DNA of 32,000 bases from the NCBI GenBank assembly GCA_963677105.1, contig OY781871.1:420001-452000 (forward strand), given 5' to 3'. Numbering within the stretch: position 1 is the first letter of the stretch; every line of letters begins with the position of its first letter. The position numbers and the translations under genes are program-made. Positions 4,631-32,000 of this stretch are shown here, piece after piece. The notes under the pieces were generated by a model that did no database searches, was not told where the DNA came from, and was given only the letters and a program-made list of their open reading frames with translations. The stretch is from Candidatus Saccharimonadota bacterium (lineage in GTDB: Bacteria; Patescibacteriota; Gracilibacteria; UBA4473).

Positions 4631-4637
4631 CGTGCGA

Positions 4638-4665: not shown

Positions 4666-4672
4666 ATCTCAA

Positions 4673-4972
4673 TCACCAAAACTTCACCGTATCAATGACA
4701 TTTTGAATTGTGGTTTTCCCTGTGTCGAGGACGGTTGCGGGAACAGTTTTTATTTCTTCAATTCGAATTATTATATCTTGATAAAGTTCCCACGCTTTAA
4801 AGCTAAGAATAATAACTACAATTAATACAACTATTGTGAAGAAATTTCGTCCAATCCATCGTAAAAGTTTTACCCAAAATGGAGGATTTATGGTGCGATT
4901 TATCCTATCAATTTTTTGCTCAAGTCGAGCAAGCGATTCTTGAATATTTGTATACGGAGATTCCTGATTCAT
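4673..4972 (-). CDS. Hypothetical single-pass membrane protein (99 aa)
   Basis: ORF with one clear hydrophobic helix (FFTIVVLIVVIILSF), lying between mnmA and gltX on the same strand. No recognisable family. Confidence 0.5.
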   Translation of the reverse strand: MNQESPYTNIQESLARLEQKIDRINRTINPPFWVKLLRWIGRNFFTIVVLIVVIILSFKAWELYQDIIIRIEEIKTVPATVLDTGKTTIQNVIDTVKFW

Positions 4973-5024
4973 AACAAAAGTGTATCATAAATAATTTAAA
5001 ATTTGTTATTTGCGATTTTGATCT

Positions 5025-6056
5025 TTAGAACGAAGCGACTATTTCTCCTCCACCTAAACAAATATCTCCGTCATATAAAACTACTTGCTGTCCGGCAACA
5101 ACCGCTTGAACCGATTCCTTAAATTCTACTGAAACTTCTTTGCCCGTTGTCTTTACTCGACAGGGAATTGATTTCCCACGAAAGCGAATCTTCGCTTCAC
5201 ATTCAAATTCTGGCACAGGAACTTCTTCTGAAATCCAGTTGAAATTGTCTGATTGCAATGAAAAACAATCAAGATCTTCTGGGTTCTGACTCACTATTAA
5301 TTCATTTTTTTCAAAATCTTTTTCAATGACAAACCACGGTAATTCTGGATGATTTTTTATTCCTCCAACTCCTAAGTTCTTTCGTTGTCCAGCCGTATAT
5401 TGTGCAAGTCCGTTATGTTTTCCGACAACAATATTAGTGTCTTTTTCAACCATTTTACCAGGTTCTTGCAAAACATATTCTGCAACAAATTTCTCAAATT
5501 TTTCTCCCTGTAAAAAACATACATCTGTACTCGATTTTTTCTCTGCATTTGGTAGTTCTAATTCCGAAGCAACTGTTCGCACTTCTTCTTTTGTGAGTTC
5601 TCCAAGCGGAAAAATGATGTTTTCTAATTGTGTTTTTGAAAGCCCTGAAAGGAAATAGGTTTGATCTTGTTCTCTGTCTTTTGGGATGAGTAATTGTCCA
5701 TGTACGGATTTGCAATAATGTCCTGTGGCAATTTTTTCTACGCCAAATTTCTCTTGTACTTTTTTCAGAAAAATACCAAATTTAAAGGACGGATTACATA
5801 AAATGCAAGGGTTTGGCGTTTTCCTTTCTTTCAATTTTTTAATAAATTCATCTTTTACTAACGCATCAAATTCTTTCTGTAAATCCAGTGTTTCAAACGG
5901 AACACCTAATTTTTTCGCAGCCGATTCAGCAAAAGCATCTGCACCTTTTCCCAGCTGATCAAACTGAACTGCAATAACTTCGTGTCCTTGTTTTTTTAAC
6001 AGTACAACTGCTACTGAACTATCAACTCCACCAGAAAAGCCAACGGCGATTTTCAT
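5025..6056 (-). CDS. mnmA: tRNA-specific 2-thiouridylase MnmA
   Basis: N-terminal PP-loop MKIAVGFSGGVDSSV; conserved Cys-containing blocks (NPCILCN, DVCF); typical 343-aa length. Confidence 0.9.
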   Translation of the reverse strand: MKIAVGFSGGVDSSVAVVLLKKQGHEVIAVQFDQLGKGADAFAESAAKKLGVPFETLDLQKEFDALVKDEFIKKLKERKTPNPCILCNPSFKFGIFLKKVQEKFGVEKIATGHYCKSVHGQLLIPKDREQDQTYFLSGLSKTQLENIIFPLGELTKEEVRTVASELELPNAEKKSSTDVCFLQGEKFEKFVAEYVLQEPGKMVEKDTNIVVGKHNGLAQYTAGQRKNLGVGGIKNHPELPWFVIEKDFEKNELIVSQNPEDLDCFSLQSDNFNWISEEVPVPEFECEAKIRFRGKSIPCRVKTTGKEVSVEFKESVQAVVAGQQVVLYDGDICLGGGEIVASF

Positions 6057-6157
6057 ACGAGAAACATGCTAAGCAGCGGTAAAACTGCCATCGCAAGCAT
6101 AGAAACAATAATACACCATACAACAATTTTGAGACCAGTAGATTTTTTCTTTGCCAT
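6053..6157 (-). CDS. Candidate 34-aa membrane micro-protein (not in ORF track)
   Basis: ATG 6157; translation MAKKKSTGLKIVVWCIIVSMLAMAVLPLLSMFLV. Its TGA stop overlaps the mnmA ATG (ATGA overlap at 6053-6056). Starts 12 nt after the grpE stop. Confidence 0.3.
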   Translation of the reverse strand: MAKKKSTGLKIVVWCIIVSMLAMAVLPLLSMFLV

Positions 6158-6169
6158 AAAAAAGATAAA

Positions 6170-6649
6170 TTATGTAATTGGCGCACCAGATATTTTTGCG
6201 GGCAATATAACTATGTCATTCAATTTCCATCCTGGTTCAAGAACCTGAACAACTGTTCCTGGTCTTCCCTCTGCTGCCATGAGAACAGCGTGTTCTTCTG
6301 GGTTAATTTCTTCTCCTGTTTTCGGAGAAATTTTTTCTAAACCTTGTTCATGAAGCATTCCCATGAACTTATGAATCACTTTTTCTATATCTTTATCTTT
6401 TGTGTGATCTGCACCAAGAAGCATTTCTTGCAAAGATGGAATTAATTTTCGAACCCACTCAGCAACAGCGATATTTGACCAACTTGCTCGAGACTCACTT
6501 TCTCGTCGACGAAAGTTTTCTAAATCCGCAAGAGCACGTAATTTAGATTGTTCTGCTTTTTTAAGATCTTCTTGTAGCGCAACAATTTGTGCTTCTAATT
6601 TCTCAGCAGGAACTGTCTTTTTCGTTGTTGTTTGTTCTTTCTTTGTCAT
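6170..6649 (-). CDS. grpE: Nucleotide exchange factor GrpE
   Basis: Coiled-coil N-terminus with LRALADLENFRRR signature; C-terminal beta domain (GTVVQVLEPGWKLNDIVILPAKI). Confidence 0.9.
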   Translation of the reverse strand: MTKKEQTTTKKTVPAEKLEAQIVALQEDLKKAEQSKLRALADLENFRRRESESRASWSNIAVAEWVRKLIPSLQEMLLGADHTKDKDIEKVIHKFMGMLHEQGLEKISPKTGEEINPEEHAVLMAAEGRPGTVVQVLEPGWKLNDIVILPAKISGAPIT

Positions 6650-6655
6650 CGATGG

Positions 6656-6688
6656 AATTTTGACAAATTTTTACAAAACGTCAAAATT
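6656..6688. promoter_or_regulatory. Perfect 9-N15-9 inverted repeat overlapping the candidate grpE promoter
   Basis: AATTTTGAC (6656-6664) / GTCAAAATT (6680-6688). On the minus strand the arms supply TTGACG (6684-6679), 16 nt, CAAAAT (6662-6657), 7 nt, ATG 6649. Confidence 0.5.
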
Positions 6689-6783
6689 TTGATCATATTT
6701 TTCGGGAAGGGGCGCAAATATCTCGTCGTTTTGACAAAACCCGTAATCTACGGCAAACTGCCCGCGAAATTTAATTTAAAAAC

Positions 6784-7344
6784 ATGTTAGGACTTTCTGA
6801 TTGTAAAACTGGCACAAAACTCGTATTAGATGGAGACCCATATGTTGTGGTATGGAATCAATTCTCAAAAACTGCTCGTCAAGGAGGAGTAATGAAAACG
6901 AAGTTAAAAAACTTAATCACAGGGAAAGTGATGGAAAAAACATTTCAAGGGAATGATAAAGTAGAAGAAGCAGATGTTGTATTTCGAAAAGCTCAGTTTC
7001 TATATTCAAGCGGAGAAAATTACGAATTTATGGACAATGAAACTTATGAATCTGTAACTTTAGAAAAGGATGTTCTTGGAGATGTTGCCGACTTTCTGGT
7101 GGATGGAATGGATTGCGATCTTCAGTTGTTTAATGGAAATCCTATTAATGTTCAGATATCACCAAAAATGACTTTTGAAATTATTGAAACAGATCCTGGT
7201 GTGCAAGGTGATCGTGTAAACGGTGGAACAAAACCAGCAACTATTTCTACTGGGAAAGTAATTCGCGTTCCTTTGTTTATCGCAAAAGGAGAAATGGTAG
7301 TGGTAAACACTGACTCTGGAGAATATGTAGAACGAGCAAAATAA
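6784..7344 (+). CDS. efp: Translation elongation factor P (Arg32 type)
   Basis: Full-length EF-P (186 aa). Loop FSKTARQGGVMKTKLKNLITG aligns with the E. coli VKPGKGQAF loop. C-terminal GEYVERAK. Confidence 0.92.
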   Translation: MLGLSDCKTGTKLVLDGDPYVVVWNQFSKTARQGGVMKTKLKNLITGKVMEKTFQGNDKVEEADVVFRKAQFLYSSGENYEFMDNETYESVTLEKDVLGDVADFLVDGMDCDLQLFNGNPINVQISPKMTFEIIETDPGVQGDRVNGGTKPATISTGKVIRVPLFIAKGEMVVVNTDSGEYVERAK

Positions 7345-8093: not shown

Positions 8094-9264
8094 GAATATT
8101 TATCTCGATCACGCCGCAACAACTCCACTTTCTCCCGAAGTGTTTGATGTCATGAAACCATGGATGACTACACAATGTTGGAATCCTGGAGGAATTTATA
8201 CTGGAGGATTTTTGGCAAAAGAAGCCGTTGAAAATGCGCGAAAAACTGTTGCCGAAATTCTCGGATGTTTGCCGAAAGAAATTATCTTTACCTCAGGAGG
8301 AAGCGAGGCAAATAATCTGGCAATTCGTGGAGTAATGAATTCGAAACCCAAAGAAACAGGACATCTTATTATTAGTTCTATAGAGCATCATTCCGTTCTT
8401 CATACTGCAGAAGATTTGGTTCGCGATGGACACGAAACATCAATAGTAAATGTTGAAAAAGATGGTCAGGTTCTTCTTGAAAACTTAAAAGCTCTTATTC
8501 AAGAAAACACCAAGCTTGTTTCTATAATGATGGCGAATAATGAAATTGGCGTAATCCAACCCATAAAAGAGATTTCTAATCTTTTGCAAAACTATGGCAA
8601 AAATATTGTTTTTCACTCTGATGCTGTACAATGTGGAACACATCTTGATTGTGATGTTAAAAAATTAGGAGTTGATTTACTGTCTCTTTCAGGACATAAA
8701 TTTTATGGACCTCGAGGCATGGGAGCGCTCTTTGTAAAGTCTGGAACACCGCTACGATCACAAATAACTGGAGGGTCGCAAGAAAACTCTCACCGAGCTG
8801 GAACAGAAAATGTGGCAGGAATTGTTGGGTTTGCAAAAGCATTGCAACTCGCAAAAGAAATCAGAAATAGCGAGACAATTCGTTTATCTCAACTTCGAGA
8901 TCACGGAATAAAAAGAATTCAAGCTGAAATTGAAAATGTGCGAATTAACGGAAGCGCTAAACACCGTTTACCAAATAATATTAATGTTTCGTTCTGGGGT
9001 GTAGAAGGCGAAAGTATTCTTTTGATGCTGAACGAAAAAGGTATTTACGCGAGCACAGGAAGTGCTTGTACTAGCACAAATTTAAATCCAAGTCATGTTG
9101 TGCTCGCCATTGGACAAGGACATGATTGGGCACACGGGTCTATTCGTCTTAGTTTAGGAAAATCAACAACAAAAGATTCTCTTGATTATGTCATTGATGA
9201 ATTAAAAAAAGTCGTAGCACATCTTCGATCAATTTCTCCTGTCCCACTCACTCCACCAAATTGA
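8086..9264 (+). CDS. nifS: Cysteine desulfurase (NifS/IscS class V aminotransferase)
   Basis: SGHKFYGPRGMGALFV (PLP lysine), catalytic-loop ASTGSACTS, HRAGTEN. Overlaps nifU by 8 nt; TGA stop. Confidence 0.9.
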   Translation: MDKNIYLDHAATTPLSPEVFDVMKPWMTTQCWNPGGIYTGGFLAKEAVENARKTVAEILGCLPKEIIFTSGGSEANNLAIRGVMNSKPKETGHLIISSIEHHSVLHTAEDLVRDGHETSIVNVEKDGQVLLENLKALIQENTKLVSIMMANNEIGVIQPIKEISNLLQNYGKNIVFHSDAVQCGTHLDCDVKKLGVDLLSLSGHKFYGPRGMGALFVKSGTPLRSQITGGSQENSHRAGTENVAGIVGFAKALQLAKEIRNSETIRLSQLRDHGIKRIQAEIENVRINGSAKHRLPNNINVSFWGVEGESILLMLNEKGIYASTGSACTSTNLNPSHVVLAIGQGHDWAHGSIRLSLGKSTTKDSLDYVIDELKKVVAHLRSISPVPLTPPN

Positions 9265-9266
9265 AT

Positions 9267-9295
9267 TTGCGATGAATAATTGAGAGAGTTACACT
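9267..9295 (+). promoter_or_regulatory. Candidate promoter of membrane ORF 9304
   Basis: TTGCGA (9267-9272), 17 nt, TACACT (9290-9295), 8 nt, ATG 9304. Confidence 0.4.
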
Positions 9296-9303
9296 GATGT
9301 GTG

Positions 9304-9858
9304 ATGGAAATACAACTCAGTTGGGACATCGTATTTATCGCTCTATTCATTATAGTTTTTGGAGTTGCGTTTATCCGTCCACATAAATTCACATTACGAT
9401 TATTATTAGGAACGTATCTTTCTTTAATTATCGCTGAAAGTGTCGCTTTTTTTCTAGAAAAAATAATTCTACCTTTTGCTCCCACGCTCCAAAGCTGGGT
9501 TTCTGAACGATCACTCATTGTATTTACAAGTATAAGGCTTCTTTTTTTTATTCTTGCAATCATATTATTTCTCGTTCGTGGGCACTATCATATCGAACAC
9601 AAAAAACATAATCACTGGCTTGCACGATCTATAATTCATCTCATGTTTGCCATTATAACAAGTCTCCTTTTGAGTATAAGTGTCTTTGCTTTCTTATCTG
9701 GGAACTCGCTTCTCGATATAATACTTGGCGGATTCTTGCTCAATCCATGGTTTGATGACAGCTTTTTTATTGAACCGATGTTACATATTTTCGGAATATG
9801 GCTTGCCTTACCAGCTGTAGGAATGCTCCTCGTAAGCATTGTGAAACCAAAAGAATAA
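9304..9858 (+). CDS. Hypothetical polytopic membrane protein (~184 aa)
   Basis: Several hydrophobic helices. ATG 9304 preferred over GTG 9301 on promoter geometry. No recognisable family. Confidence 0.6.
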   Translation: MEIQLSWDIVFIALFIIVFGVAFIRPHKFTLRLLLGTYLSLIIAESVAFFLEKIILPFAPTLQSWVSERSLIVFTSIRLLFFILAIILFLVRGHYHIEHKKHNHWLARSIIHLMFAIITSLLLSISVFAFLSGNSLLDIILGGFLLNPWFDDSFFIEPMLHIFGIWLALPAVGMLLVSIVKPKE

Positions 9859-9887
9859 GGTCGCTAAAGCTCAAACGTACAATTTTC

Positions 9888-9904
9888 AAAATACAAACTA
9901 CAAA
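9888..9904 (-). repeat. Heptad-phased TTTGTAn intergenic motif, copy D
   Basis: Minus strand reads TTTGTAGTTTGTATTTT, 15/17 identical to the 15891 and 26935 copies. Lies in the convergent spacer between membrane ORF and corA. Confidence 0.6.
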
Positions 9905-9950
9905 ATTTGATTTTTGTTCTTTGATATTTGAAATTTTAGAACGATAGTGC

Positions 9951-10856
9951 CTATGTGAGTTTCTGTTTTTTCATCCAATGATACAATAAGGCCCCTGAAA
10001 TAATAGAAAATAAAATCATCCCTCCAAGAATCCAAAGAAGTACATCAAATCGTTGTTCAATTTTATTTAAAATATTCATTCCGAAGAATCCCGTCACAAG
10101 AGCGAGAAAGGCTAAAATAGCTGTCGCCGAAGTTAAAATCAGATCAATTTGAATAATTTTGTTTCGACGAGAAGAAAGTTTCAACGTCAAAATCTCTTGT
10201 GTGTCGTCAATATTCTCATCCAACTCATCAATTCTATTTGAAATGTCTTCAAGCTGTTCCACCACATTTTCTAAAATGGATTCTAAATCATCTGTCTCTT
10301 TCGGCTTTTTCCCTAAATACATATCTTCAAGCTCTTCATTGTCGTCCATAATATCGTCCAATATTTCATTGAGCTCTCGTGTGTTTTTTGCCAGTTTTGA
10401 AAGTTTCTTTTTGGCTGACAACAATTTTTCAAAAATCTCATCATGATGTTGTGTCCGCAACATTGCTAAAATACGCTCCACGAGATGTTTCGCTTTTTCA
10501 AAGTTCGTAAGAGTTTTCCTCAACATATGCTCAAGTGCTGCGTCTAGCACAACGTGCTCGAATCTCGATTCTTCCTCGCGTGTAATAATTCTTTCTGTTA
10601 AGAGGGGAATAAATAATTCGGAAATTCTGTCCTCCTCTGTATTAAAAATAAATACTTCTTTTTCTCCAACGAGAACTTTTACTGCACGGAAGTTAATAAC
10701 CAAACATCTCCCACGACGAGCAATTGTAGGCATTTGTCGAAGAGAAAAAATTGGACGTAAATCGCGTACATGCAAATCAAATTGCTGCGATAAAGATCGA
10801 CGATCTACCGCTACTTCTTCTGTTTGTCCGTTGAGGTTAATTTTTAAACACTGCAT
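9951..10856 (-). CDS. corA: CorA-family Mg2+/Co2+ transporter
   Basis: C-terminal two TM helices with GMN signature (TGFFGMNILN); acidic coiled-coil cytoplasmic domain; 301 aa. Confidence 0.85.
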   Translation of the reverse strand: MQCLKINLNGQTEEVAVDRRSLSQQFDLHVRDLRPIFSLRQMPTIARRGRCLVINFRAVKVLVGEKEVFIFNTEEDRISELFIPLLTERIITREEESRFEHVVLDAALEHMLRKTLTNFEKAKHLVERILAMLRTQHHDEIFEKLLSAKKKLSKLAKNTRELNEILDDIMDDNEELEDMYLGKKPKETDDLESILENVVEQLEDISNRIDELDENIDDTQEILTLKLSSRRNKIIQIDLILTSATAILAFLALVTGFFGMNILNKIEQRFDVLLWILGGMILFSIISGALLYHWMKKQKLT

Positions 10857-10858
10857 GT

Positions 10859-11755
10859 CTAGAAAAGTGAATTTTGTAAAGCTATATTTAATTGAAGTCC
10901 GTTTGGTTTTACAGATAAATCACATTCTCGTCCAGACAAACTTTTGAGATTAAAACTTACCAATTCTTCCTCAGTATCAACAATTATAAATGAACCTTTT
11001 ATTGCCTTAATTTTCCCGCTCACCGATTCTCCCTCTTTTAATACAATTGGATGAAGTGGTTTTCCTTCAGAAAGAATATTCTCTGTTTTATATACATCTG
11101 TCCAATTTCTAAATTCAGGATTTTCAAGAATAAATTTTTTCAAATGAGCTGCTGAATCAAGCGCAAAAACGTGATTTTGAAAGAGAGAATAAAGTATTTT
11201 TTTTCCGTCTTCTGCAGAAATTTCTGGAAGCAACAATGATTTTTTTTGTCGTCCCATTACTTTATCCGCTAATCCCGAACGACGAAGCAACGTTTCTATT
11301 TGTCGTGCAACAACTCCGTCTGGCGTTTGGGCAATATATAAAGTTTGATGACTTCCTTGCTCAATTTGTCGCAAACTTTTTCGCGCTAAATTTGATACTC
11401 CAATTTTGATTACATCTGTATCAAAAAGTGCCAAATAGACAACATGTTCCCCAGAAATTTTTTCTAAATCTCCTACTTGAAGTTGCGCTTGGTTAAAACC
11501 ATCAAACGCGGTATAGACAAAATTTCCTTCAATTGCTCGACAATATTCACATTTTGCTTTTCCTTCTGAATGTTTAGGACACGCTTTCCATGTTCCATTT
11601 TCGATAAATCCAGCACAACGCAAAGAAGAACAAACTTCAACCGAAATATTTTCTCCAATAACCACTGGTTTTCGACCAAATCGTCCATCTACAATTCCTT
11701 GTAATTCACACGAATGTTCGTCTGTCCAGCGGAAATCATACAAAAGGGCTTTCAT
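10859..11755 (-). CDS. Conserved hypothetical protein, Cys-rich N-terminus (possibly DUF2797-like)
   Basis: Cys cluster VCSSLRCAGF..ACPKHSEGKAKCEYCR. Core block HVVYLALFDTDVIKIGVSNLARKSLRQIEQG recalls GIY-YIG/T5orf172-like and DUF2797 proteins (recollection, not verified). Stop is 2 nt before the corA ATG. ATG 11755 chosen over TTG 11776. Confidence 0.6.
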   Translation of the reverse strand: MKALLYDFRWTDEHSCELQGIVDGRFGRKPVVIGENISVEVCSSLRCAGFIENGTWKACPKHSEGKAKCEYCRAIEGNFVYTAFDGFNQAQLQVGDLEKISGEHVVYLALFDTDVIKIGVSNLARKSLRQIEQGSHQTLYIAQTPDGVVARQIETLLRRSGLADKVMGRQKKSLLLPEISAEDGKKILYSLFQNHVFALDSAAHLKKFILENPEFRNWTDVYKTENILSEGKPLHPIVLKEGESVSGKIKAIKGSFIIVDTEEELVSFNLKSLSGRECDLSVKPNGLQLNIALQNSLF

Positions 11756-11839
11756 TGTGCAGAAAACTTCTATCAAAAAAGAGGAGGAAAATCAAGACAA
11801 GTCTTTCATAAAAAACATACATTTTTTCGATTAATATTC

Positions 11840-11868
11840 TTGGCGGACAGAAAAGAAACAATTACTCT
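11840..11868 (+). promoter_or_regulatory. Candidate promoter of recJ
   Basis: TTGGCG (11840-11845), 17 nt, TACTCT (11863-11868), 8 nt, ATG 11877. Confidence 0.35.
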
Positions 11869-11876
11869 GCTCCGTG

Positions 11877-13571
11877 ATGACACAATTGCGATCTTTTTCT
11901 CAGAAGCTTTGGCAAATCTCTTCTGATTCTACCGTTACAACTCTTCCGGATTTACAGTCCATTTTATTAGAAAATCGTGGATTAACAGATCATGAAACTA
12001 TTCAGAATTTTCTTGAACCATCACTCGAAAATCTTGAAAGTCCGTGGGAAATGAAAGATATGAAAAAGGCCGTTGAAAGAATTAAGCGCGCTATTGAAAA
12101 CGATGAACGCATTATTGTTTTTGGAGATTTCGATACCGATGGAATCACGGCCACTGTGATTCTGGCGCAAACATTGAAAAAGTTGGGCGCACATGTTTCA
12201 TATCGAATTCCTGATAGAACTGCTGATAGTCATGGTTTGAAAACATACTTTTTAGATGATCTTGCTGAACGAAATGTTTCTCTGGTAATCACTGTTGATT
12301 GTGGGATAAACGATTCAGTAGAAGTTTCTTATGCAAAAGAGAGAGGAATTGATGTAATCATTACGGATCATCACGAATCGGATGCAAAAATATTTCCCAA
12401 AGATGCTGTCGCTGTACTCAATCCAAAGGTTGGAGAAAATGGAGAAACGTCTCCAGAACTAGCTGGAGCTGCTGTCGCATGGAAGCTCGCTGCTGCAATT
12501 TCTGAAGAAATATTACAAAACAATTCTGAAAAAATCGCCTCAATTCTCGATCCATTATTGGAACTTGTTGCAATAGGAATTATTGCTGATTGTGTAGAGT
12601 TGGTGGGAGAAAACAGGATCTTTGCAAAGTTTGGACTTGAAAAAATTAAAACCACAAGTTGGAAGGGATTGTTGCAGTTATTAGAACGCACTGAAACTTC
12701 TCTTGATAAGATCACTGAGGAGTCTGTTGGGTTTGTGATTGCACCACATTTGAATGCAGCATCTCGAATTGGTGACGTATTAATTGCAGCACAATTGTTT
12801 TTGGGAAATGAAAATGAAAACTTAGCGAGAATCGAAAAATTGCTTCACTGGAATAACATTCGTCGAGAACTAACTGAAAAAGCAATTGCGCAATCTGCAG
12901 AACAAATTCGCCCAAAGGCTCCTTTTCAGATTTTTTATAATAAAAAATGGAAACCGGGAATTTTGGGATTATTGGCCGCTCGACACAGCCAACAATTAGG
13001 CGTTCCCACTGTAGCATGTACTCTTCGAAAAGATGGGAAAATATCCGCCTCTTGTCGTGCTCCTGAAGGATATTCTATTATTGATGGACTGAGAGCAACT
13101 GAAAAATGTCTTGAAAAATTTGGTGGACATGCAGGAGCTGCAGGATTTTTTATGGAACAAAAGAATTTTGAAGAATTAAAAAAGCAACTTGATCATCATT
13201 TTTCTCAAAAAAATATCGGAACAATTCCCTTAAAAGTAGACGCGTGGGTTTCTTCTGAATTATTGAATGAAGAATTAATCAATTTTTTAAAGTTTTTCGC
13301 ACCGTTTGGAAATGGAAATCCCGCCCCAATTCTGGGACTAAAAAATGTGAAAATATCTAACATTCGCTCGATGGGAAAACAAAAAAATCACGCTCGAATT
13401 ATTGGGGAAATAGAAGGAAGAGAGTTAAATTTTATCGCTTTTTTTGCTCGACATTTCATAGAGCAAGTAAATGTTAATGATCATGTAGACATTGCTATAA
13501 CGATTGGCGAAAACGAATGGAATGGAAAAAGAACATTAGAGTTACGAGTTATAGATATTTGGAAAAAATAA
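11877..13571 (+). CDS. recJ: Single-stranded-DNA-specific exonuclease RecJ
   Basis: DHH-family motifs IIVFGDFDTDGITA, ITVDCGI, IITDHH; DHHA1 region GGHAGAAGF; C-terminal OB-like region. Confidence 0.9.
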   Translation: MTQLRSFSQKLWQISSDSTVTTLPDLQSILLENRGLTDHETIQNFLEPSLENLESPWEMKDMKKAVERIKRAIENDERIIVFGDFDTDGITATVILAQTLKKLGAHVSYRIPDRTADSHGLKTYFLDDLAERNVSLVITVDCGINDSVEVSYAKERGIDVIITDHHESDAKIFPKDAVAVLNPKVGENGETSPELAGAAVAWKLAAAISEEILQNNSEKIASILDPLLELVAIGIIADCVELVGENRIFAKFGLEKIKTTSWKGLLQLLERTETSLDKITEESVGFVIAPHLNAASRIGDVLIAAQLFLGNENENLARIEKLLHWNNIRRELTEKAIAQSAEQIRPKAPFQIFYNKKWKPGILGLLAARHSQQLGVPTVACTLRKDGKISASCRAPEGYSIIDGLRATEKCLEKFGGHAGAAGFFMEQKNFEELKKQLDHHFSQKNIGTIPLKVDAWVSSELLNEELINFLKFFAPFGNGNPAPILGLKNVKISNIRSMGKQKNHARIIGEIEGRELNFIAFFARHFIEQVNVNDHVDIAITIGENEWNGKRTLELRVIDIWKK

Positions 13572-18695: not shown

Positions 18696-19937
18696 TTAGC
18701 TCGTTTGATGCGCCTTCACTACCTTTTTTGTTCCACGTAATATTTTTGCTGGCCATGCTCTATATTCTGAAATAAATTCATCTCGACGTGTTTTCCCGTT
18801 GTGAGAAATATATCGCCACCATTCTGTTCGAAACCCGTTATGTTGTGGGGAAATTATTTCCGTTTCACCTTCTGGTAAATCTTCACTTGCATACACAATT
18901 GGTGTTGGTGCTTTTTTGAAATCAGTAATAAACGGTCCTTCTAGTTGAACTTTTCGTCCATCAGCTGCCCCGTAAAAAATGAAAAACAAATTATCATCTT
19001 CCGTAAAAGTTTGAATCAAGAGATCGCCTTCTGTGTCATTTGTGAATCGAAAATCGAGTTGTCCGAGATAAATTGCGGCATCAAGTCCATATGGTTTATA
19101 ATACGGAACCGCATAAGAATGAGATCGTCGTGATTTAATAGGAAATCCACCAGAAAGCGCAGCACGAAAAGCTGTCGTTGAAACCTGACACACTCCTCCT
19201 CCTTGCTCTTTTTCTGTCTCATTTCCTTTGATCACCAATTCTGGAACAAATCCACTTGATAAATCTACATCTTCCAATATCTCATTGAAAGAAAATCTTG
19301 CTCCTCTTGGGACTATGGCTCCATTAAATTTAGCCGCTCCTGTTTTTATATTTTTACGACGTGCCACTGAAGATCCACCAAAATTTGATTCTCCAACTGC
19401 AATAATTTCTCGAATTCCTCTCTCTTTTAATTCTTCTGCAATTGTTACGGGAGAAAAAATCTTTCGTGCTGGAACTCGCACATTCGTACGATTATTTTCA
19501 ATCGCTGTATCGAGCAAAGAAATAAGTCGTTCAATATTTATTTCATAGCCATCACGAGGAGTTCCTTCAAATACAATATTTTTCTTTTCGTCAAAAGAAA
19601 TTTTTACCGCTGTCTGCTTTGGTGCTCGAACAATAGACATCTCAGATAAAACTGCATGTAAATTTTCTGGTGAAATTCGTGTTACAAATTCTGTTTCAAT
19701 ATCAAAAAGTTCCTCAGCCGGAGGCAATTCTCCTCGCAAATTTAGTGGCATTTTTAAGTCTCCTATTCGCAAAAAATGTATTGGTGTTTGTTGCAACAGT
19801 TCTGGCTGAACTTGAAAATCAAGAGTAATAGCTCGATCATCAAAAATAAGTGTAATTGGATCTGGAACTTTTGCCGCCATAACACAGGTCGTTATGAAGA
19901 GAGAAAAGGTAGCTACAGCAAATAATTTCAATTTCAT
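18696..19937 (-). CDS. VanW-family protein with N-terminal signal/anchor
   Basis: Hydrophobic N-terminus MKLKLFAVATFSLFITTCVMA. VanW-type core GGGVCQVSTTAFRAALSGGFPIKSRRSHSY. Confidence 0.8.
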   Translation of the reverse strand: MKLKLFAVATFSLFITTCVMAAKVPDPITLIFDDRAITLDFQVQPELLQQTPIHFLRIGDLKMPLNLRGELPPAEELFDIETEFVTRISPENLHAVLSEMSIVRAPKQTAVKISFDEKKNIVFEGTPRDGYEINIERLISLLDTAIENNRTNVRVPARKIFSPVTIAEELKERGIREIIAVGESNFGGSSVARRKNIKTGAAKFNGAIVPRGARFSFNEILEDVDLSSGFVPELVIKGNETEKEQGGGVCQVSTTAFRAALSGGFPIKSRRSHSYAVPYYKPYGLDAAIYLGQLDFRFTNDTEGDLLIQTFTEDDNLFFIFYGAADGRKVQLEGPFITDFKKAPTPIVYASEDLPEGETEIISPQHNGFRTEWWRYISHNGKTRRDEFISEYRAWPAKILRGTKKVVKAHQTS

Positions 19938-22345: not shown

Positions 22346-23347
22346 TTACCGCAAATTTCCAAATACTCGAGAAGAAGCCACCGTTTGTTGTGTCAACTCA
22401 ATTGCGTTTCCTGATCTCACTCCGAAATCTTCTGGTCGTCTCAATTTCGTATTTAAACGAAGGAAAACATGCGGCTGTATTTGTACGTCAGGATTTCTGT
22501 AATTGAGAAATGGCTCTCGATCTGGTCCCGGAATAAATTCAAATGACGTCACTTCTATTGCTTTTGGCGAAATATTTGTCCAATCGTGACCTCTTGTACA
22601 AGATTTTTCATCTGATGCACGTAACACTGTCCCCGATATTGGTGGTGTTGTAAAACTCGCTTCTTCATACGCTCTACACGTCCCATTTCCACCATTGCTC
22701 CATTGAAGAAATGCGCTCCAATTGTCTGATTTTCCATCTTCTGTGACATCAACTCCTAATTGCCGTTGCATTTGCAATCGATCTCCATCTAATCTGATCG
22801 CCGTACGTTCAGTTCGTTCTTCATTAATAAGATAGAGTTCTGTCGGAGTTCCATGAAATGCCTGTGAACAAAGGTCGATCTCGTCTAGAGAACCACTTAC
22901 AAATTTTTTTCCTCCCAAGTTTCGATATCGCTCAATAGCGCCATCTGCAATATTCCATACAAATATATTCTCATATCCAATTGCTGCACGATTTTCTGGA
23001 GTGTTGTCAAAATCTGTAAGGTCCACAGGATCTGCTTCTCCATCACGAAGAGTATATGGAATCTGTCTTACTTCAAAACCAGGACATATCGCCGCATCTG
23101 AATCTGGACCAATTTCGATAAAAAAACGATCGTAATCAATTGTATTGTTTCGAACCAATTGCGTAATTCGCTCCATTAAAAATCGAGATTCAGAAGCGAA
23201 ACTCTGCGTTGCGTTAATTTTTTTTTGAGAAAAATAAATATTCCCCAAAGAAATAAACATTCCTGATAATACCAGTGAAGAAATCGTACTTGCGATTATC
23301 AATTCCACCAGCGTCATTCCTCGAAAACGATAATTTAATTTTTTCAT
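22346..23347 (-). CDS. Type IV minor pilin/pseudopilin, PilW-like
   Basis: Class III signal MKKLNYRFRG|MTLVELIIASTISSLVL (G-1, E+5). 333 aa. Third gene of the pilin operon, directly abutting the upstream gene. Confidence 0.75.
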   Translation of the reverse strand: MKKLNYRFRGMTLVELIIASTISSLVLSGMFISLGNIYFSQKKINATQSFASESRFLMERITQLVRNNTIDYDRFFIEIGPDSDAAICPGFEVRQIPYTLRDGEADPVDLTDFDNTPENRAAIGYENIFVWNIADGAIERYRNLGGKKFVSGSLDEIDLCSQAFHGTPTELYLINEERTERTAIRLDGDRLQMQRQLGVDVTEDGKSDNWSAFLQWSNGGNGTCRAYEEASFTTPPISGTVLRASDEKSCTRGHDWTNISPKAIEVTSFEFIPGPDREPFLNYRNPDVQIQPHVFLRLNTKLRRPEDFGVRSGNAIELTQQTVASSRVFGNLR

Positions 23348-24019
23348 TTAATAAGAATCTCTTCCAAGGTAATCATATAAATAAGTCTCCAAATCAAGGG
23401 AACGAACTCCTTTTCCTTCTGCCCATTGTGTTCTCACAAGAACACGTAATCGTACGTCTTTCGGACAATCAATCCAATCACAAGCCGGATCAATCCAAGT
23501 ATCTTCAGGTGTTAACTGAACTTGTCGATAAAAAGGTGTTTTTTCTCCTACTGAATTATGTGAAAAACGTCCAGCACTAGCTCCTTGATACAAGCGAAAT
23601 TCTTCTGCTGGCAACGTATCTTCTGCCGTAAGTGTTGACATCATGTTTTTAAGAAAATACCGTCCATTCGTGTCAGAAAATTCTACTCTATAAACATCAT
23701 CTGTAATAATTGGTATTGTGCTATCACTACACGCATTCAAGGTGGTAGCATTCGTTGTCGTGTCTAAACACAACCATTTGTTTCGTCGATCTCCGGAGTA
23801 TTTCAACCAATTTGTATCACGAATATTTCGCACAGCTTCAACTCCCTCTCTCGCAATATTAAGTGCAACAACTCGATTCACTGCATTCACATTTGTTGAA
23901 CTTGCGCGAGCAATAATTCCAAAAACACTTGAGAGAATCATTGTCAAAACTGTTATCGCAATGACAACCTCTACAAGAGATTCTCCTGAAAAATGAAACC
24001 TTTTTAATTGTCGTTGCAT
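23348..24019 (-). CDS. Type IV minor pilin/pseudopilin, PilV-like
   Basis: MQRQLKRFHFSG|ESLVEVVIAITVLTMIL, a prepilin-type N-terminus with E+5 but unusual Glu at +1. Overlaps the upstream gene by 16 nt. Confidence 0.7.
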   Translation of the reverse strand: MQRQLKRFHFSGESLVEVVIAITVLTMILSSVFGIIARASSTNVNAVNRVVALNIAREGVEAVRNIRDTNWLKYSGDRRNKWLCLDTTTNATTLNACSDSTIPIITDDVYRVEFSDTNGRYFLKNMMSTLTAEDTLPAEEFRLYQGASAGRFSHNSVGEKTPFYRQVQLTPEDTWIDPACDWIDCPKDVRLRVLVRTQWAEGKGVRSLDLETYLYDYLGRDSY

Positions 24020-24546
24020 TCGTCAGAAGAAATAAATGGATATGATGATATTCGAGAAAAACAAATCGTGCTCTCTTTTCCCGCTCCTGCTGAATTTAAT
24101 TTTATACGTGCCCATTTGGGAGTATATGTAGTTCCAATTCTTGATTGTGTACCACCTGGGAAAATAAAAATCCGAAGCGGAACTTCTGACCACCAATTCC
24201 CAGCTCCTAATACTGCTGCTTGCTCAAGTGTGATATTGGCATTTGATTCCCACGGGAAAGTCTCAACCGTTATTTCCGTTGAATCTTCTTGCGTACACAG
24301 AATAGACATTTCCGAGGACGTTACTTGCGCTATCCAATTCGCAGCAACTTCTCCATCACAATCTTTCTCAGCCAGCGCCATTGATCGTACATCCGAAATG
24401 AGTTCGAGCGTTCTTTGTGTATCATTTTCAAGGTTTTGTTGATTTCTCCACTGTGAAAATGTTGGCGCAGCAACTCCCGCCATAATTCCTATGAGCGTAA
24501 CTGCCACAAAAAGCTCCACTAATGTAAATCCTGAACATTTTTGCAT
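24004..24546 (-). CDS. Type IV minor pilin, FimT/GspH-like
   Basis: MQKCSG|FTLVELFVAVTLIGIMAGVAAP, a canonical prepilin cleavage/methylation motif with a 6-aa leader. ATG 24546 chosen because the track's TTG 24582 coincides with a -35 box. Confidence 0.75.
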   Translation of the reverse strand: MQKCSGFTLVELFVAVTLIGIMAGVAAPTFSQWRNQQNLENDTQRTLELISDVRSMALAEKDCDGEVAANWIAQVTSSEMSILCTQEDSTEITVETFPWESNANITLEQAAVLGAGNWWSEVPLRIFIFPGGTQSRIGTTYTPKWARIKLNSAGAGKESTICFSRISSYPFISSDECNDN

Positions 24547-24553
24547 CACAAAA

Positions 24554-24582
24554 ATACTAACGGTCTCCTCCTTGAGTTGCAA
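24554..24582 (-). promoter_or_regulatory. Candidate promoter of the minor-pilin operon (leaderless geometry)
   Basis: TTGCAA (24582-24577), 17 nt, TAGTAT (24559-24554), 7 nt, ATG 24546. Confidence 0.45.
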
Positions 24583-28537: not shown

Positions 28538-31500
28538 ATGAATAAATTTCCCCAACTGGATCCGAAAAAATCTATCGCTCAATGCGAAGAATCTATTCTA
28601 GAGCTTTGGAAAGATCGTCGTATTTTTGAAAGAACGATTGAGTCTCGATCTGAACACAATGAATTCCGTTTTTTTGACGGACCTCCTTTTGCAACAGGAT
28701 TACCGCATTATGGACACATTCTTGCTGGAACGATTAAAGACGCTATTCCGCGTTATAAAACGATGCAAGGATTTCGTGTAACTCGAAATTGGGGTTGGGA
28801 TTGTCACGGAGTTCCTGTGGAATTTCAGGTGGAAAAAGAACACAAAATTGGAGGAAAACCAGGAATTGAAAAAATGGGAGTCGCAAAATTTAATGAGTTA
28901 TGTCGTTCCGTTGTTTTACGTTGTGCAGAAGACTGGGAAAAAACCGTCGATCGCATGGGACGATTTGTTGATTTCTCAAACGATTACAAAACGATGGATC
29001 CTAATTTTATGGAATCTGTATGGTGGGTTTTTGGGCAGCTCTGGAAAAAAGGATTAGTGTATGAAGGAGAAAAAGTAGTTGCATATTCACCAAAACTTGG
29101 TTCGCCTCTTTCAAATTTTGAAGCGAATTTAAATTATAAAGACATTGATGATCCAGCTGTAACAGTGAAGTTCGAACTTGCCAATGAACCGGGGACATAC
29201 TTCCTCGCGTGGACAACAACTCCATGGACATTACCATCAAATCTTGCTTTAGCGGTTCATCCAGATATTAAATATGTTAAGTTTGAAAATCCTGACAAGA
29301 AAGGAGAAAATTTAATTATGGCTAAAGAACTATTTTATAAAAATTACCCAAGTTCATGGAAGGAAACATCAGAACATGGAACTCCAGAAATAGATAAGAC
29401 ACCAGATATTGAAAAAGTTTATCTGGGAAAAGACCTTGTTGGAACAAAATACAAACCACTTTTCCCGTTTTTTAAGGATCACGAAGGAGCGTTTCAAGTT
29501 CTTTCTGCAGATTACGTTTCAGCTGAAGACGGAACGGGAATCGTACATCAAGCGCCAAATTTTGGTGAAGACGATGCAAAAGTGTGTTTTGAGCACAAGA
29601 TAAAACCTTTGATCCCACAACCAATAAATGATTCTGGATATTTTGATGATCAAATCCCAGAACTCGCTGGAAAATATTTCCGAGATGATACTGAAGTTGC
29701 TGGATCAAAAGAAGATAATGCAAATAAATGGGTTTTAGAAAACTTAGGAGAGAAATTATTTAAGCGCGAACAAATTCGTCACAGTTATCCGCATTGTTGG
29801 AGAACTGATTGTGCATTGATGTATCGCGGAATCAACACGTGGTTTGTAGATGTACAAAAAGTGAAAGATCTCATGATTGAGAAAAATCAGGAGATTAATT
29901 GGTTGCCAGATCATTTGAAAAACGGACGTTTTGGAAAAATGTTGGAAGGCGCGCCTGATTGGGCAATTTCACGAAATCGTTACTGGGGAACACCTATTCC
30001 TGCTTGGCGCTGTGACTCTTGTGGAGAAATTCATGTAGTTTCTTCTCGTGCAGAATTGGAGAAAAAAACGGGAAAAAAAGTAAATGATTTACATAAACAT
30101 TTTGTGGATGATTTAACCTGGAAATGTGAAAAATGTTCCGGGAAAATGAAACGAATCGAAGAAGTGCTTGATTGTTGGTTTGAGTCTGGATCAATGCCAT
30201 ATGCAAGTACGCATTATCCATTTTCTGAACTAAAAGAAGAGCAAAGTGCGGAAGATTTTGATTGTTCGAAAAATGAATTTAAATCAGCAGATTTTATCGC
30301 TGAAGGACTGGATCAAACCCGTGGATGGTTTTACACATTACATGTTTTGGGATGTGCTTTATTTGGAAAAAATATTTTCAAAAATGTAGTTACAAACGGA
30401 ATTGTTCTCGCGGAAGACGGACAAAAAATGTCGAAATCAAAAAAGAATTATCCAGATCCACATTTGGTATTTGATAAATATGGAGCGGATGCGATGCGAT
30501 ATTATCTTTTGTCTTCGCCAGTTGTGCGTGGAGAAAACTTTCGTTTTTCCGAATCTGGAGTTGCAGAAGTATTGAAGTCTGTAATCTTGCCACTCCGAAG
30601 TTCATATCAATTTTTCTCAACATACGCGAATATCGACGGATGGAATCCAACTGAATTCACGTTTATACGACATGGAGAAGGCGAACACAATGTGAAAAAG
30701 ATTTACTCTGGAAAAGTCGATAACGATCATCATTTAACTAAAAAGGGAATTCAACAAGTCGTAGAAACTTCAAAAAACCTTGAAAACTTTGATATACTTG
30801 TCGCTTCCCCGTTTATTCGTACACAAGAAACGGCTGAGATTATAAAAAATGAAACAGGATTTTCGGGAGAAATTATTACTGATGAACGAGTTCAAGAACT
30901 CTCTTTTGGGAAACTGGAAGGACAGCCGTTTTTGTCTCGCAGAGAAAGAGTTGCTGAAAAAACTACTGAACAACCAGAGTCTGTAAAAAAACGGCTCTCA
31001 GCATTCCTGTCAGACCTGGGGAAAAAATATCCAGGAAAAAAGATTGTAGTGTGTAGTCACGGAGGAGTGCTCATGGCGTTAGATTCTCTTGAAGCTCGCT
31101 GGAAAACAACTGAAGAAATGCTCCGACTCCCTGTTGCACAAACAGGAAAAACTCGAACAATATTCCCCGAACCAGCATCTGAAAACGAACTTGATCAGTG
31201 GATTCTGTCTGAATTACAAGAGCTTTTACAAGATTATTGCAAAAAGATGGATGTATATGATCTCGAAGGAGCGTTACGTCAAATTCCCGTATTTGTTGAT
31301 AAATTAAACAACTGGTATCTTCGTCGAAATCGACAACGATTTTGGGCAAATGGATTGTCTGTAGAAAAGTCCGCTGGATATGCAACATTGCATCATGTGT
31401 TACAAACTATTGCGAAAATACTGGCTCCAATTTGTCCATTTTTTGCAGAAGAATTATTCCAAAATTTGGGTGGCGGAGATTCCGTACATTTAGAACTTAT

Positions 31501-32000
31501 CCCTCAATCACGAAACGATTGGAAGAACGAACCGCTTGATCAAAAAATGGATCAAGTTCGCGATATTGTACGTTTATCTGCTGGAATACGAGCAAAAGCA
31601 AAAATAAAATTACGACAACCACTTGGAAAATTACAGGTATTTGTTTCCAGTCCTGAAAATCTAGATTTAGACGTTATTGCCGCCGAATCGAATGTGAAAT
31701 ATATAGAAATATTATCTAAAGAATCCCTCAATAAAATCGCAACAAAAATAGTAAAAGTGAATGCGCGAATTGTGGGAAAAAAGTTTGGGAAAAAGGTTCA
31801 AGAACTCATTCAAAAGGGAAAATCTGGTGAGTTTACAGAAAAAGAAAATGGCTTCATCGAAATTGCAGGAGAAATGCTTTCTTCGGAAGAATATGAATTA
31901 GGATATTTAACCGCAGAAGGACTTGAGGCCGAAGCTTCTGCCACATCCGTCGTTCTCCTCGATACAACAATTACACCTGAATTAGAATTGGAAGGGATTG
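28538..32000 (+). CDS. ileS: Isoleucyl-tRNA synthetase (eukaryote-like/type 2), 3' end outside window, with inserted histidine-phosphatase domain
   Basis: Frame of ATG 28538 has no stop to the window end, so it is absent from the ORF track. HYGH motif 28706-28717; editing-domain block TTTPWTLPSN; KMSKS 30425-30439 followed by KNYPDP; anticodon-binding region DQWILSEL..NWYLRRNRQRFW. Confidence 0.93.
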   Translation, partial: MNKFPQLDPKKSIAQCEESILELWKDRRIFERTIESRSEHNEFRFFDGPPFATGLPHYGHILAGTIKDAIPRYKTMQGFRVTRNWGWDCHGVPVEFQVEKEHKIGGKPGIEKMGVAKFNELCRSVVLRCAEDWEKTVDRMGRFVDFSNDYKTMDPNFMESVWWVFGQLWKKGLVYEGEKVVAYSPKLGSPLSNFEANLNYKDIDDPAVTVKFELANEPGTYFLAWTTTPWTLPSNLALAVHPDIKYVKFENPDKKGENLIMAKELFYKNYPSSWKETSEHGTPEIDKTPDIEKVYLGKDLVGTKYKPLFPFFKDHEGAFQVLSADYVSAEDGTGIVHQAPNFGEDDAKVCFEHKIKPLIPQPINDSGYFDDQIPELAGKYFRDDTEVAGSKEDNANKWVLENLGEKLFKREQIRHSYPHCWRTDCALMYRGINTWFVDVQKVKDLMIEKNQEINWLPDHLKNGRFGKMLEGAPDWAISRNRYWGTPIPAWRCDSCGEIHVVSSRAELEKKTGKKVNDLHKHFVDDLTWKCEKCSGKMKRIEEVLDCWFESGSMPYASTHYPFSELKEEQSAEDFDCSKNEFKSADFIAEGLDQTRGWFYTLHVLGCALFGKNIFKNVVTNGIVLAEDGQKMSKSKKNYPDPHLVFDKYGADAMRYYLLSSPVVRGENFRFSESGVAEVLKSVILPLRSSYQFFSTYANIDGWNPTEFTFIRHGEGEHNVKKIYSGKVDNDHHLTKKGIQQVVETSKNLENFDILVASPFIRTQETAEIIKNETGFSGEIITDERVQELSFGKLEGQPFLSRRERVAEKTTEQPESVKKRLSAFLSDLGKKYPGKKIVVCSHGGVLMALDSLEARWKTTEEMLRLPVAQTGKTRTIFPEPASENELDQWILSELQELLQDYCKKMDVYDLEGALRQIPVFVDKLNNWYLRRNRQRFWANGLSVEKSAGYATLHHVLQTIAKILAPICPFFAEELFQNLGGGDSVHLELIPQSRNDWKNEPLDQKMDQVRDIVRLSAGIRAKAKIKLRQPLGKLQVFVSSPENLDLDVIAAESNVKYIEILSKESLNKIATKIVKVNARIVGKKFGKKVQELIQKGKSGEFTEKENGFIEIAGEMLSSEEYELGYLTAEGLEAEASATSVVLLDTTITPELELEGI
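30659..31165 (+). other. Histidine phosphatase superfamily (His_Phos_1/PGAM-like) domain embedded in IleRS
   Basis: FIRHGEGEHN (RHG 30668-30676), HLTKKGIQQ, ILVASPFIRTQETAEII, VQELSFGKLEGQPF, KIVVCSHGGVLMAL (SHG 31055-31063). All family signature blocks are present in the canonical order. Confidence 0.85.

Follow-up and report, generated by a model that had tools for sequence, protein, structure and literature searches.

Aminoacyl-tRNA synthetases are among the best-studied of all enzymes, and the bacterial ones are regarded as architecturally stable. The closest described counterparts of the enzyme discussed here are the type-2 isoleucyl-tRNA synthetases (IleRS) solved from T. thermophilus (1ILE), Priestia megaterium (IleRS2, 8C8U), yeast (7D5C), and human (9W01), in which a linker of ~20 residues leads into the anticodon-binding domain. 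Accessory domains are a known theme in synthetases, and the NCBIfam model for IleRS with a GNAT acetyltransferase (NF040702) provides curated recognition of an enzyme domain nested in IleRS; NCBIfam holds no equivalent model for a form with a histidine phosphatase. The subject of this analysis is such a form, conserved but undescribed, found in a stretch of 32,000 nucleotides from a Candidatus Saccharimonadota bacterium (contig OY781871.1, positions 420,001 to 452,000), the whole of which is referred to as the window. The ileS gene of the window (28538..31999, + strand) encodes a type-2 IleRS that lacks a GNAT domain and aligns with the solved enzymes in its HIGH and KMSKS signatures, CP1, CP3 four-Cys region, anticodon-binding domain, and DUF5915, but carries a 169-residue phosphatase of the histidine phosphatase branch 1 family (His_Phos_1) where those enzymes have their short linker.

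A Histidine Phosphatase Domain Nested in Isoleucyl-tRNA Synthetase

The nested domain comprises aa 708-876 of the window protein (30659..31165 on the + strand, as for all features of the gene given below) and was delimited with Pfam, AlphaFold2, and Foldseek. Pfam reads the protein as tRNA-synt_1 (aa 20-668, E = 1.4e-140), His_Phos_1 (PF00300; aa 708-848, E = 2.1e-27, 96.5 bits against a gathering cut-off of 21.7), Anticodon_1, and DUF5915, the first three in the order foreseen in a preliminary description of this DNA, and the 169-residue segment alone matches PF00300 with E = 2.8e-29 and 102.6 bits. The domain contains Arg711 and His712 of the RHG motif (30668..30673; motif 30668-30676), with His712 as the predicted phospho-acceptor; Arg761, the second phosphate-binding Arg, in SPFIR (30818..30820; motif 30806-30820); Glu787, the predicted proton donor, in QELSFGKLEG (30896..30898; motif 30893-30922); and His841, the second catalytic His, in SHGG (31058..31060; motif 31055-31066). 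Relatives of the window protein carry related domains at the same site, hotspot B, or further upstream, at hotspot A. All 30 aligned site-B copies and all 55 site-A copies have Arg711 and His712, Arg761 and His841 are likewise invariant, and Glu787, invariant at site B, is matched at site A by Glu in 53 of 55 copies and by Asp in two, the other catalytic residues being kept in all 55; gaps in the site-A residue table correspond to truncated fragments. Judged by its sequence, the window phosphatase is thus complete and apparently active, since the full catalytic set is both present and conserved, and the catalytic competence predicted in the preliminary description agrees with the retention of the Arg, His, Arg, Glu, and His residues in orthologues.

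The insert stands in for the ~20-residue linker that would otherwise lead from the post-KMSKS stem-contact region into the anticodon-binding domain. Upstream of it, conserved IleRS sequence ends with STYANIDGWNPTEF (30617..30658), which has STYANIDGW at 30617-30643, and the IleRS sequence resumes at PEPASENELDQW..., from which the C-junction and the anticodon-binding helical domain (PF08264; aa 886-1029, E = 1.1e-29) extend over 31166..31624, with ELDQWILSE at 31187-31213. The junctions themselves read ...PTEF/TFIRHG on the N-terminal side and ...TRTIF/PEPAS on the C-terminal side. In solved type-2 IleRS the same two flanks lie only ~20 residues apart (human, 665 to 689; yeast, 666 to 687), the C-flank of the window protein aligning with the human enzyme from residue 689 and with the yeast enzyme from residue 687, so that the short linker assumed to be normal for this class is indeed what the alignments show. 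An insert-free close relative (P0206) has ~25 residues where the window protein has the 169-residue domain. AlphaFold2, run on the 169 residues with a 30-sequence alignment, gave a model with a predicted local distance difference test score (pLDDT) of 95.6 and a predicted TM-score (pTM) of 0.90, in which the first strand occupies residues 2-4. With strand 1 beginning at residue 2 and only 2-3 residues separating the end of the last strand from the C-junction, the domain is inserted with almost no linker.

By its sequence the host is a recognizable class Ia IleRS, with the HIGH and KMSKS signatures, the CP1 editing motifs, and the anticodon-binding domain all present. Frame 1 from position 28538 translates without a stop for 1154 codons up to the window end, and a public protein of 1233 aa (P0152), whose gene is located on a 962-kb contig, is 100% identical to the window IleRS, which sets the complete protein at 1233 aa and places the 3' part of the gene, beyond the first 1154 of 1233 codons, past the window end. 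The NCBIfam equivalog for ileS (TIGR00392) scores 895.8 bits against a cut-off of 621.4, its match falling into two stretches split at residue 706. Read from the sequence, the HIGH signature appears as HYGH (aa 57-60, 28706..28717), the Thr-rich motif of the CP1 editing domain as TTTPWT (aa 226-231, 29213..29230), followed by GTGIVH (aa 332-337, 29531..29548), both of which we take to be markers of the IleRS editing domain, and the KMSKS loop lies at aa 630-634 (30425..30439). The CP3 four-Cys knuckle, WGTPIP...CDSC...CEKC...CWFESG (29984..30190), corresponds by mapping against P0206 to hotspot A1, which in many relatives is occupied by a His_Phos domain; in the window protein both the knuckle and the segment after CWFESG are uninterrupted. 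The C-terminal DUF5915 domain (PF19302, E = 2.2e-07) begins at aa 1045 (31670..31999) and is cut by the window end. Every motif quoted in the preliminary description, and the insertion point it claimed, was recovered at the position given there, and the match as a whole lies far outside what chance could produce. The exceptional IleRS families were considered and rejected, the window protein scoring 292 bits against a cut-off of 1999 for NF040702, and 679 and 659 bits against 1900 for the mupirocin-resistant MupA and MupB models, all far under the cut-offs. It is a genuine and probably sole-function IleRS. The nearest named relatives belong to Candidatus Gracilibacteria, Peregrinibacteria, and Peribacteria, and the window holds long uninterrupted open reading frames under translation table 11, which is consistent with a code-11 lineage.

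Conservation and Inheritance

It is exceedingly improbable that the arrangement is an artefact, whether a chimeric assembly, a decaying pseudodomain, or an intein-like element, and nothing speaks for such an origin except the rarity of the architecture in textbooks. The same junction, with 47-54% identity over both borders, was found in a scan of species-representative genomes in three independent metagenome-assembled genomes (MAGs) labelled Gracilibacteria or Peribacteria (L002-L004), and mapping of inserts against the insert-free P0206 placed a His_Phos domain at the exact window site in 58 proteins, drawn from NCBI, JGI, ENA, and Logan. This recurrence in independent assemblies and database proteins, combined with the invariant catalytic residues, in practice rules out a chimeric assembly or a pseudodomain, and the GC content of the insert (0.36-0.42) is the same as that of its flanks, as the preliminary description had also noted. 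That description had further reported neither a stop nor an intein-type junction; the frame is open, as stated above, and the Pfam scan of the window protein contains no intein or Hint family, while the insert is itself a complete enzyme fold, on which grounds an intein was rejected. A mobile-element cassette at the window site was also rejected, the junctions showing no repeat signature: terminal or target-site repeats are absent there beyond a 13-of-17-nt likeness at chance level. This likeness pairs the 17-nt stretch at 30641-30657 (TGGAATCCAACTGAATT) with 31199-31215 (TGGATTCTGTCTGAATT), 34 nt past the insert, and probably arose by chance from two W-x-x-x-E-[FL] codon runs.

The nested domain is further seen to follow its host through time. 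Pairwise identities of the site-B domain and of the IleRS core with inserts removed are correlated (Mantel r = 0.78, a value reached in 0 of 2000 permutations), and this tracking of host-core identity indicates vertical inheritance with the host. The domain is the faster-evolving of the two, with a mean identity of 41% against 61% for the core, and the pattern of residue conservation indicates that it has been kept under selection for catalysis. In a neighbor-joining distance tree of ~170 domains the window domain groups with the other site-B copies, and site-A, ValRS (valyl-tRNA synthetase), and free-standing copies are intermixed; the tree is poorly resolved and was used only for the coherence of the site-B clade of the window.

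Distribution Among IleRS and ValRS

A word-indexed homologue search with the insert and its flanks returned 2 proteins only, whereas exhaustive and full-length searches showed a large family, the full-length search yielding a set of 115 close IleRS relatives from Gracilibacteria, Peregrinibacteria, and Peribacteria. Among these, one His_Phos copy is present in 85 proteins, two in 13, and three in 2, with none in the remaining 15, so that by sequence a nested His_Phos is the normal state of IleRS in a clade of the candidate phyla radiation (CPR), being found in 100 of 115 close relatives. In the coordinates of P0206, the inserts concentrate at hotspot A1 (~540-580, inside CP3 after WGTPIP), where 58 of 63 are His_Phos; at hotspot A2 (~590-610, after CWFESG...HYPF), where 13 of 25 are His_Phos and the rest are other domains; and at hotspot B (~730-760), the window site, where His_Phos accounts for 58 of 60. 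The CP1 editing-domain region (~215-340) holds 8 inserts, none of them His_Phos. IleRS from outside the CPR that were found via the flanks (Bacteriovoracaceae and others) are without the insert.

Other CPR lineages place the domain differently. Two Saccharibacteria MAGs (L005 and L006) and a metagenome contig (L001) have His_Phos at A1 and not at B, and an Absconditabacteria MAG (L007) has His_Phos at A1, a degenerate copy at B, and a Nudix domain in CP1. The L007 enzyme (2893-7017 of JAQUVI01, genetic code 25) is a 1375-aa IleRS readable only with UGA as Gly, and its degenerate site-B domain reads RHA..., with Asn replaced by Gly, and SHQ. On L001 (ENA ERZ26859043, 3x coverage) the IleRS at 8521-12401 lies in three frames, probably through low-coverage assembly errors; it has His_Phos at A1 and a ~200-aa unassigned insert at A2 (~10900-11500), and among the genes around it are those for a Y1 transposase, integrases, and a PemK-like toxin.

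A domain of this kind also occurs in a second synthetase. Three ValRS proteins (P0090, P0108, and P0113) have a His_Phos nested at the position equivalent to IleRS hotspot A, a ValRS fragment (P0031) has one following the equivalent position, and P0005 joins the N-terminal part of ValRS to four His_Phos domains. When the insert alone was searched exhaustively against 1.84 billion representatives, the long proteins in the best 150 were IleRS or ValRS only, and the remainder were free-standing His_Phos proteins of ~180 aa or tandem ones of ~420 aa. The tandem proteins with two His_Phos domains (415-430 aa; P0047, P0052, P0112, P0119, P0141, P0142, and others) are among the closest relatives of the insert and may be pseudo-dimers that echo the tandem copies at A1. 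The gene of one free-standing homologue (P0002) adjoins CBS, GSDH, and EF-G genes.

The preliminary description had named no described IleRS of this architecture and had called for a database check. As regards the literature this stands, since searches turned up no paper that deals with the hotspot system or with a phosphatase nested in either IleRS or ValRS, and nothing relevant on synthetases with histidine phosphatase or phosphoglycerate mutase, on CPR/Patescibacteria, or on RNA repair in this connection. The architecture is not a one-off, however, given 100 of 115 relatives, three hotspots, and ValRS, in sequences that are public and automatically annotated. One JGI name reads 'isoleucyl-tRNA synthetase/phosphohistidine phosphatase SixA/...', in which SixA is an automatic COG name, and NCBI names several others (P0165, P0168, P0234, P0180, and P0224) 'hypothetical protein', 'GNAT family N-acetyltransferase' or 'class I tRNA ligase family protein'. 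With synthetases misnamed in this way, genome-based surveys of metabolism or completeness might get the number of IleRS wrong and miss the enzymes nested in them.

Relationship to Other Histidine Phosphatases

The best Foldseek matches of the model are small-molecule histidine phosphatases and phosphoglycerate mutases (9mmh, PhoE, GpgP, CobC, and PspA), with PhoE (1h2e) matched at a probability of 1.00, a TM-score of 0.84, and an rmsd of 2.4 Å. The insert is 32% identical to 9mmh, the Aquifex HFP, which is an ARAPDP phosphatase of the riboflavin pathway (PMC12051542). SixA was not found among the 50 Foldseek matches listed. The cap segment between the Glu and the second His is modestly shorter at site B, with 54 residues against 62-63 in other copies. 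Assignment of the insert as a phosphoglycerate mutase (dPGM), CobC, PspA, or SixA was rejected, as it falls under every NCBIfam equivalog cut-off: 27.7 bits against 81.7 for dPGM (TIGR01258), 79.4 against 225 for the archaeal model (NF038349), 75.7 against 162.9 for CobC (TIGR03162), and 28.8 against 74.5 for SixA (TIGR00249). The substrate is consequently not readable from family membership. In PADLOC the phosphatase matched no defence system.

Other Domains Nested in Sibling Synthetases

Histidine phosphatases share the hotspots with other enzymes. GNAT acetyltransferases are frequent at the same hotspots in sibling IleRS, some of them together with His_Phos, and alpha/beta Ser_hydrolase and Nudix domains are also nested there. 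A few sibling IleRS contain a P-loop kinase (AAA_18/AAA_33/zeta/CPT-like) that matches the chloramphenicol phosphotransferase family and whose PHROG matches are a generic ATPase (the best, 8e-8), polynucleotide kinase (5.8e-7), and RNA ligase. In P0215, from a JGI metagenome, residues 557-985 at A2 consist of two tandem HAD_2 phosphatases without any His_Phos, so that the His_Phos looks to have been swapped for a non-homologous phosphatase, and this HAD insert has a near-threshold match to the 'Swiss Army Knife RNA repair' HAD family. Y1 (IS200-like) transposase-like and DUF559 endonuclease-fold domains also occur in-frame inside IleRS. Inserts of the Y1/DUF559 type were seen in CP1 in P0232, P0013, P0213, and P0227, and at A1 or CP1 in P0156, P0162, P0164, and P0229; they hint either at delivery to these loops by mobile cassettes or at domesticated domains.

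A recurring insert of ~200 aa (P0193, P0189, P0228, P0210, P0218, and L001) has invariant Gly-His, Ser, Phe, Arg, and Ser-Arg residues and a sub-threshold Pfam match to MuF_C. Its model, with pLDDT 80, gave no PDB match, and the word-indexed search returned almost nothing, but weak BFVD matches (E = 5e-5 to 5e-4) link it to phage 'large polyvalent protein'/MuF-C. MuF-C has been classed as a PBECR predicted RNase (PMC5512222), and finding a module of RNase type within a synthetase would, if it is genuine, be remarkable.

Possible Roles of the Nested Phosphatase

The leading reading, which we hold tentatively, is that the domain works as a phosphomonoesterase tethered to the synthetase and frees the acceptor end of tRNA from phosphate; the first of three roles put forward in the preliminary description, healing of the tRNA 3' end, is of this kind. 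The phosphatase would be kept at all times next to the surface on which the synthetase binds tRNA and would act locally. Its most likely client would be a phosphate that blocks the acceptor end of tRNA-Ile, either the 2'- or 3'-phosphate that remains after damage by an RNase or a (pyro)phosphate that a toxin has attached to A76. According to established His_Phos chemistry, His712 would attack the terminal phosphate and take over the phosphoryl group, Arg711, Arg761, and His841 would hold the phosphate in place, and Glu787 would protonate the leaving group. Removal of the phosphate would restore the free hydroxyl that IleRS needs, and repair and charging would take place on one enzyme.

Several observations favor this reading. 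Related domains, from one to four per protein, occupy three sites in IleRS and the equivalent one in ValRS, which makes the linkage with a synthetase look selected, and the presence of HAD phosphatases in place of His_Phos in P0215 suggests that phosphatase activity itself matters. This partnership specific to IleRS and ValRS, at several sites and in multiple copies, is why the tRNA acceptor end was ranked as the most likely client. The domains co-nested in siblings lend circumstantial support, in that the kinase, Nudix, and PBECR-like modules belong to the vocabulary of RNA-end chemistry. Toxins are known that pyrophosphorylate the CCA end of tRNA and thereby block aminoacylation, which hydrolases restore (10.1101/2021.04.30.441581), and one of them, FaRel2, is reported to select specific tRNAs (PMC11559606). 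Modification of A76 is thus a real, tRNA-selective, and hydrolase-reversible form of attack, which again favors a client at the tRNA end.

A body of evidence weighs against a tRNA client and supports instead an autonomous metabolite phosphatase lodged in a permissive loop, a possibility that the preliminary description had not considered and that is nearly as likely as the tRNA-end reading. The insert may then perform housekeeping or scavenging dephosphorylation unrelated to aminoacylation, with three surface loops beside conserved motifs tolerating or attracting in-frame cassettes and residence in IleRS ensuring that a very small genome expresses the enzyme. In both sequence and structure, the nearest matches of the domain are small-molecule and metabolite phosphatases. 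Many close relatives of the insert are free-standing proteins of ~180 aa, and free-standing and tandem homologues are abundant, so the enzyme need not be joined to IleRS in order to work. Its loss in 13% of relatives (15/115) makes it dispensable for charging. The window domain has a near-neutral net charge of ~+1 and no basic surface, site B is at the hinge of the anticodon-binding domain and does not obviously adjoin the catalytic pocket, and the Pnk-like, RNA-repair HAD, and PBECR links are all individually weak. The alternative is a serious one because the same loops hold unrelated domains, some of mobile-element type, including GNAT, kinase, alpha/beta hydrolase, DUF559, and Y1 transposase-like domains, and residence in them need not imply functional coupling. 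However, a permissive loop leaves unexplained the IleRS/ValRS-only partnership among the closest relatives, the repeated use of three sites, with as many as four copies, and the HAD phosphatases in the His_Phos-free relative; nor do the other window proteins, the large GyrA, FtsH, and LepA included, contain any foreign insert, or the junctions a mobile-cassette repeat.

Other proposals keep the phosphatase functionally coupled to IleRS but give it another client. It is unlikely, as an argument by analogy, that the domain serves detoxification or by-product removal by destroying some small phosphorylated compound that the active site binds or gives rise to, with an inhibitor (also raised in the preliminary description), a breakdown product of a dinucleotide polyphosphate, or 3'-phosphorylated nucleotides as candidates, while the GNAT, hydrolase, kinase, and Nudix domains of siblings would modify adenylate-mimic antibiotics. 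The co-nested domains are of antibiotic-inactivating types, the kinase matching the chloramphenicol phosphotransferase family, GNAT and serine hydrolase enzymes inactivate microcin C, and the small-molecule type of fold fits; the idea is nevertheless purely analogical, no known IleRS inhibitor has a phosphomonoester, and His_Phos enzymes are not known to cleave adenylates or Ap4A. Less probable again is a protein phosphatase that removes an inhibitory phosphate from the synthetase or a partner, reversing a HipA-like kinase; dephosphorylation of the synthetase itself had been proposed in the preliminary description and gains no support here. SixA, Sts-1, and PGAM5 are His_Phos protein phosphatases, and the shorter cap at site B and the kinase co-nested in a few relatives would suit such a role, but the SixA model scores far under its cut-off, the 50 structural matches listed are led by metabolite phosphatases and phosphoglycerate mutases and do not include SixA, the one protein phosphatase looked for, the co-nested kinase is of the P-loop small-molecule or polynucleotide type rather than a protein kinase, and no phosphosite is known. 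The least favored of these roles, and a very improbable one, is that of a phospho-ligand sensor, which would bind a phosphometabolite or become phosphorylated at His712 and, through its rigid linker-less insertion at the hinge, tune tRNA binding to metabolic state. The near linker-less junctions at a hinge between two tRNA-contacting domains and the conserved pocket would fit, yet the intact proton-donor Glu and pair of His residues speak for turnover, not binding, and occurrence of the same domain at A1, at A2, and in ValRS argues against a hinge-specific role.

Returning to a client at the tRNA end, a wider and more speculative version, possible but doubtful, is that IleRS and ValRS of the CPR are 'polyvalent' synthetases, platforms for modules of tRNA-end repair or counter-attack, in which a blocking 2'/3'-(pyro)phosphate on the CCA end of the cognate tRNA would be removed by the nested phosphatase on the synthetase itself. 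The other modules might comprise a HAD phosphatase in place of His_Phos, a Pnk-like kinase, Nudix, GNAT, and a PBECR-like RNase, and whole enzyme domains could have been delivered in-frame, by a cassette-like mechanism, to loops beside the most conserved IleRS motifs. Repair-coupled aminoacylation of this kind would, if true, constitute a quality-control step of a kind not known for any synthetase.

Whichever role applies, the distribution suggests that across the whole ultra-small (CPR) radiation IleRS, and less so ValRS, is a carrier of accessory enzymes predicted to be catalytically intact, with a histidine phosphatase as a near-universal passenger in CPR IleRS. Should tRNA prove to be the client, the enzyme would be the first synthetase found to repair its own RNA substrate, and charging would be tied to damage by toxins or RNases. 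Should the client be a metabolite, the arrangement would be a striking nested gene fusion in minimal genomes, and metabolic reconstructions would miss enzymes hidden inside 'isoleucine--tRNA ligase'.

Genomic Surroundings

The genes upstream of ileS in the window are ordinary ones, namely gyrA, a VanW/G5 protein gene, ftsH, def, genes for two pilin-like proteins, lepA, and a gene for an MgtC/DUF4010 protein, and no tRNA or Rfam features were found in the window. On the - strand, the regions 22346-24582 and 18696-19937 encode two adjacent proteins with N-terminal pilin-type methylation motifs, which flank an open reading frame of 223 aa without a Pfam match, and, nearby, a VanW/G5 protein. Genes of this sort, for surface structures, are typical of CPR bacteria that live as episymbionts, and they have no bearing on the nested phosphatase.

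Comparison With Known Systems

The insert has its fold and catalytic residues in common with PhoE/YhfR, Aquifex HFP (9mmh), GpgP (Rv2419c), CobC, and PspA. Those are free-standing enzymes of ~200-210 aa with known metabolite substrates, whereas the insert has ~169 aa, a shorter cap, and a nested position. A CobC-like phosphatase fused to a nucleic-acid enzyme is known in the RNase H/acid phosphatase of the Rv2228c/RnhC type (NF005567, for which the insert scores 64 bits against a 326-bit cut-off), but that fusion is end-to-end and its partner is RNase H, in contrast to a phosphatase nested in IleRS.

With respect to the proposed logic, in which a phosphatase attached to a tRNA-handling enzyme clears 2'/3'-phosphates, the nearest parallels are T4 Pnkp, which combines a P-loop kinase with a HAD phosphatase, and the E. 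coli CCA-adding enzyme, which has an HD phosphatase domain. The resemblance is functional only, as the folds differ from that of the window His_Phos and no ligase partner is seen, and homology of the insert to the HAD, calcineurin-like, or HD modules of healing enzymes was rejected on the same difference of fold. Small alarmone hydrolases, which reverse pyrophosphorylation of the tRNA CCA end by toxSAS toxins, do a job like that proposed here, removing phosphate from A76 and restoring aminoacylation (10.1101/2021.04.30.441581; PMC11559606), but are free-standing proteins of the HD fold without homology to the window domain. No toxSAS came to light in the window, although no search aimed at one was made. 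The 'polyvalent proteins' of phages and plasmids, the description of which mentions neither a tRNA synthetase nor a phosphoglycerate-mutase-type domain (PMC5512222), come closest in overall design, since they assemble many unrelated enzymatic modules in one polypeptide and their MuF-C/PBECR-like module recurs in sibling IleRS. They are, however, injected conflict proteins of mobile elements (PMC5512222), unlike the IleRS described here, which is an essential housekeeping enzyme.

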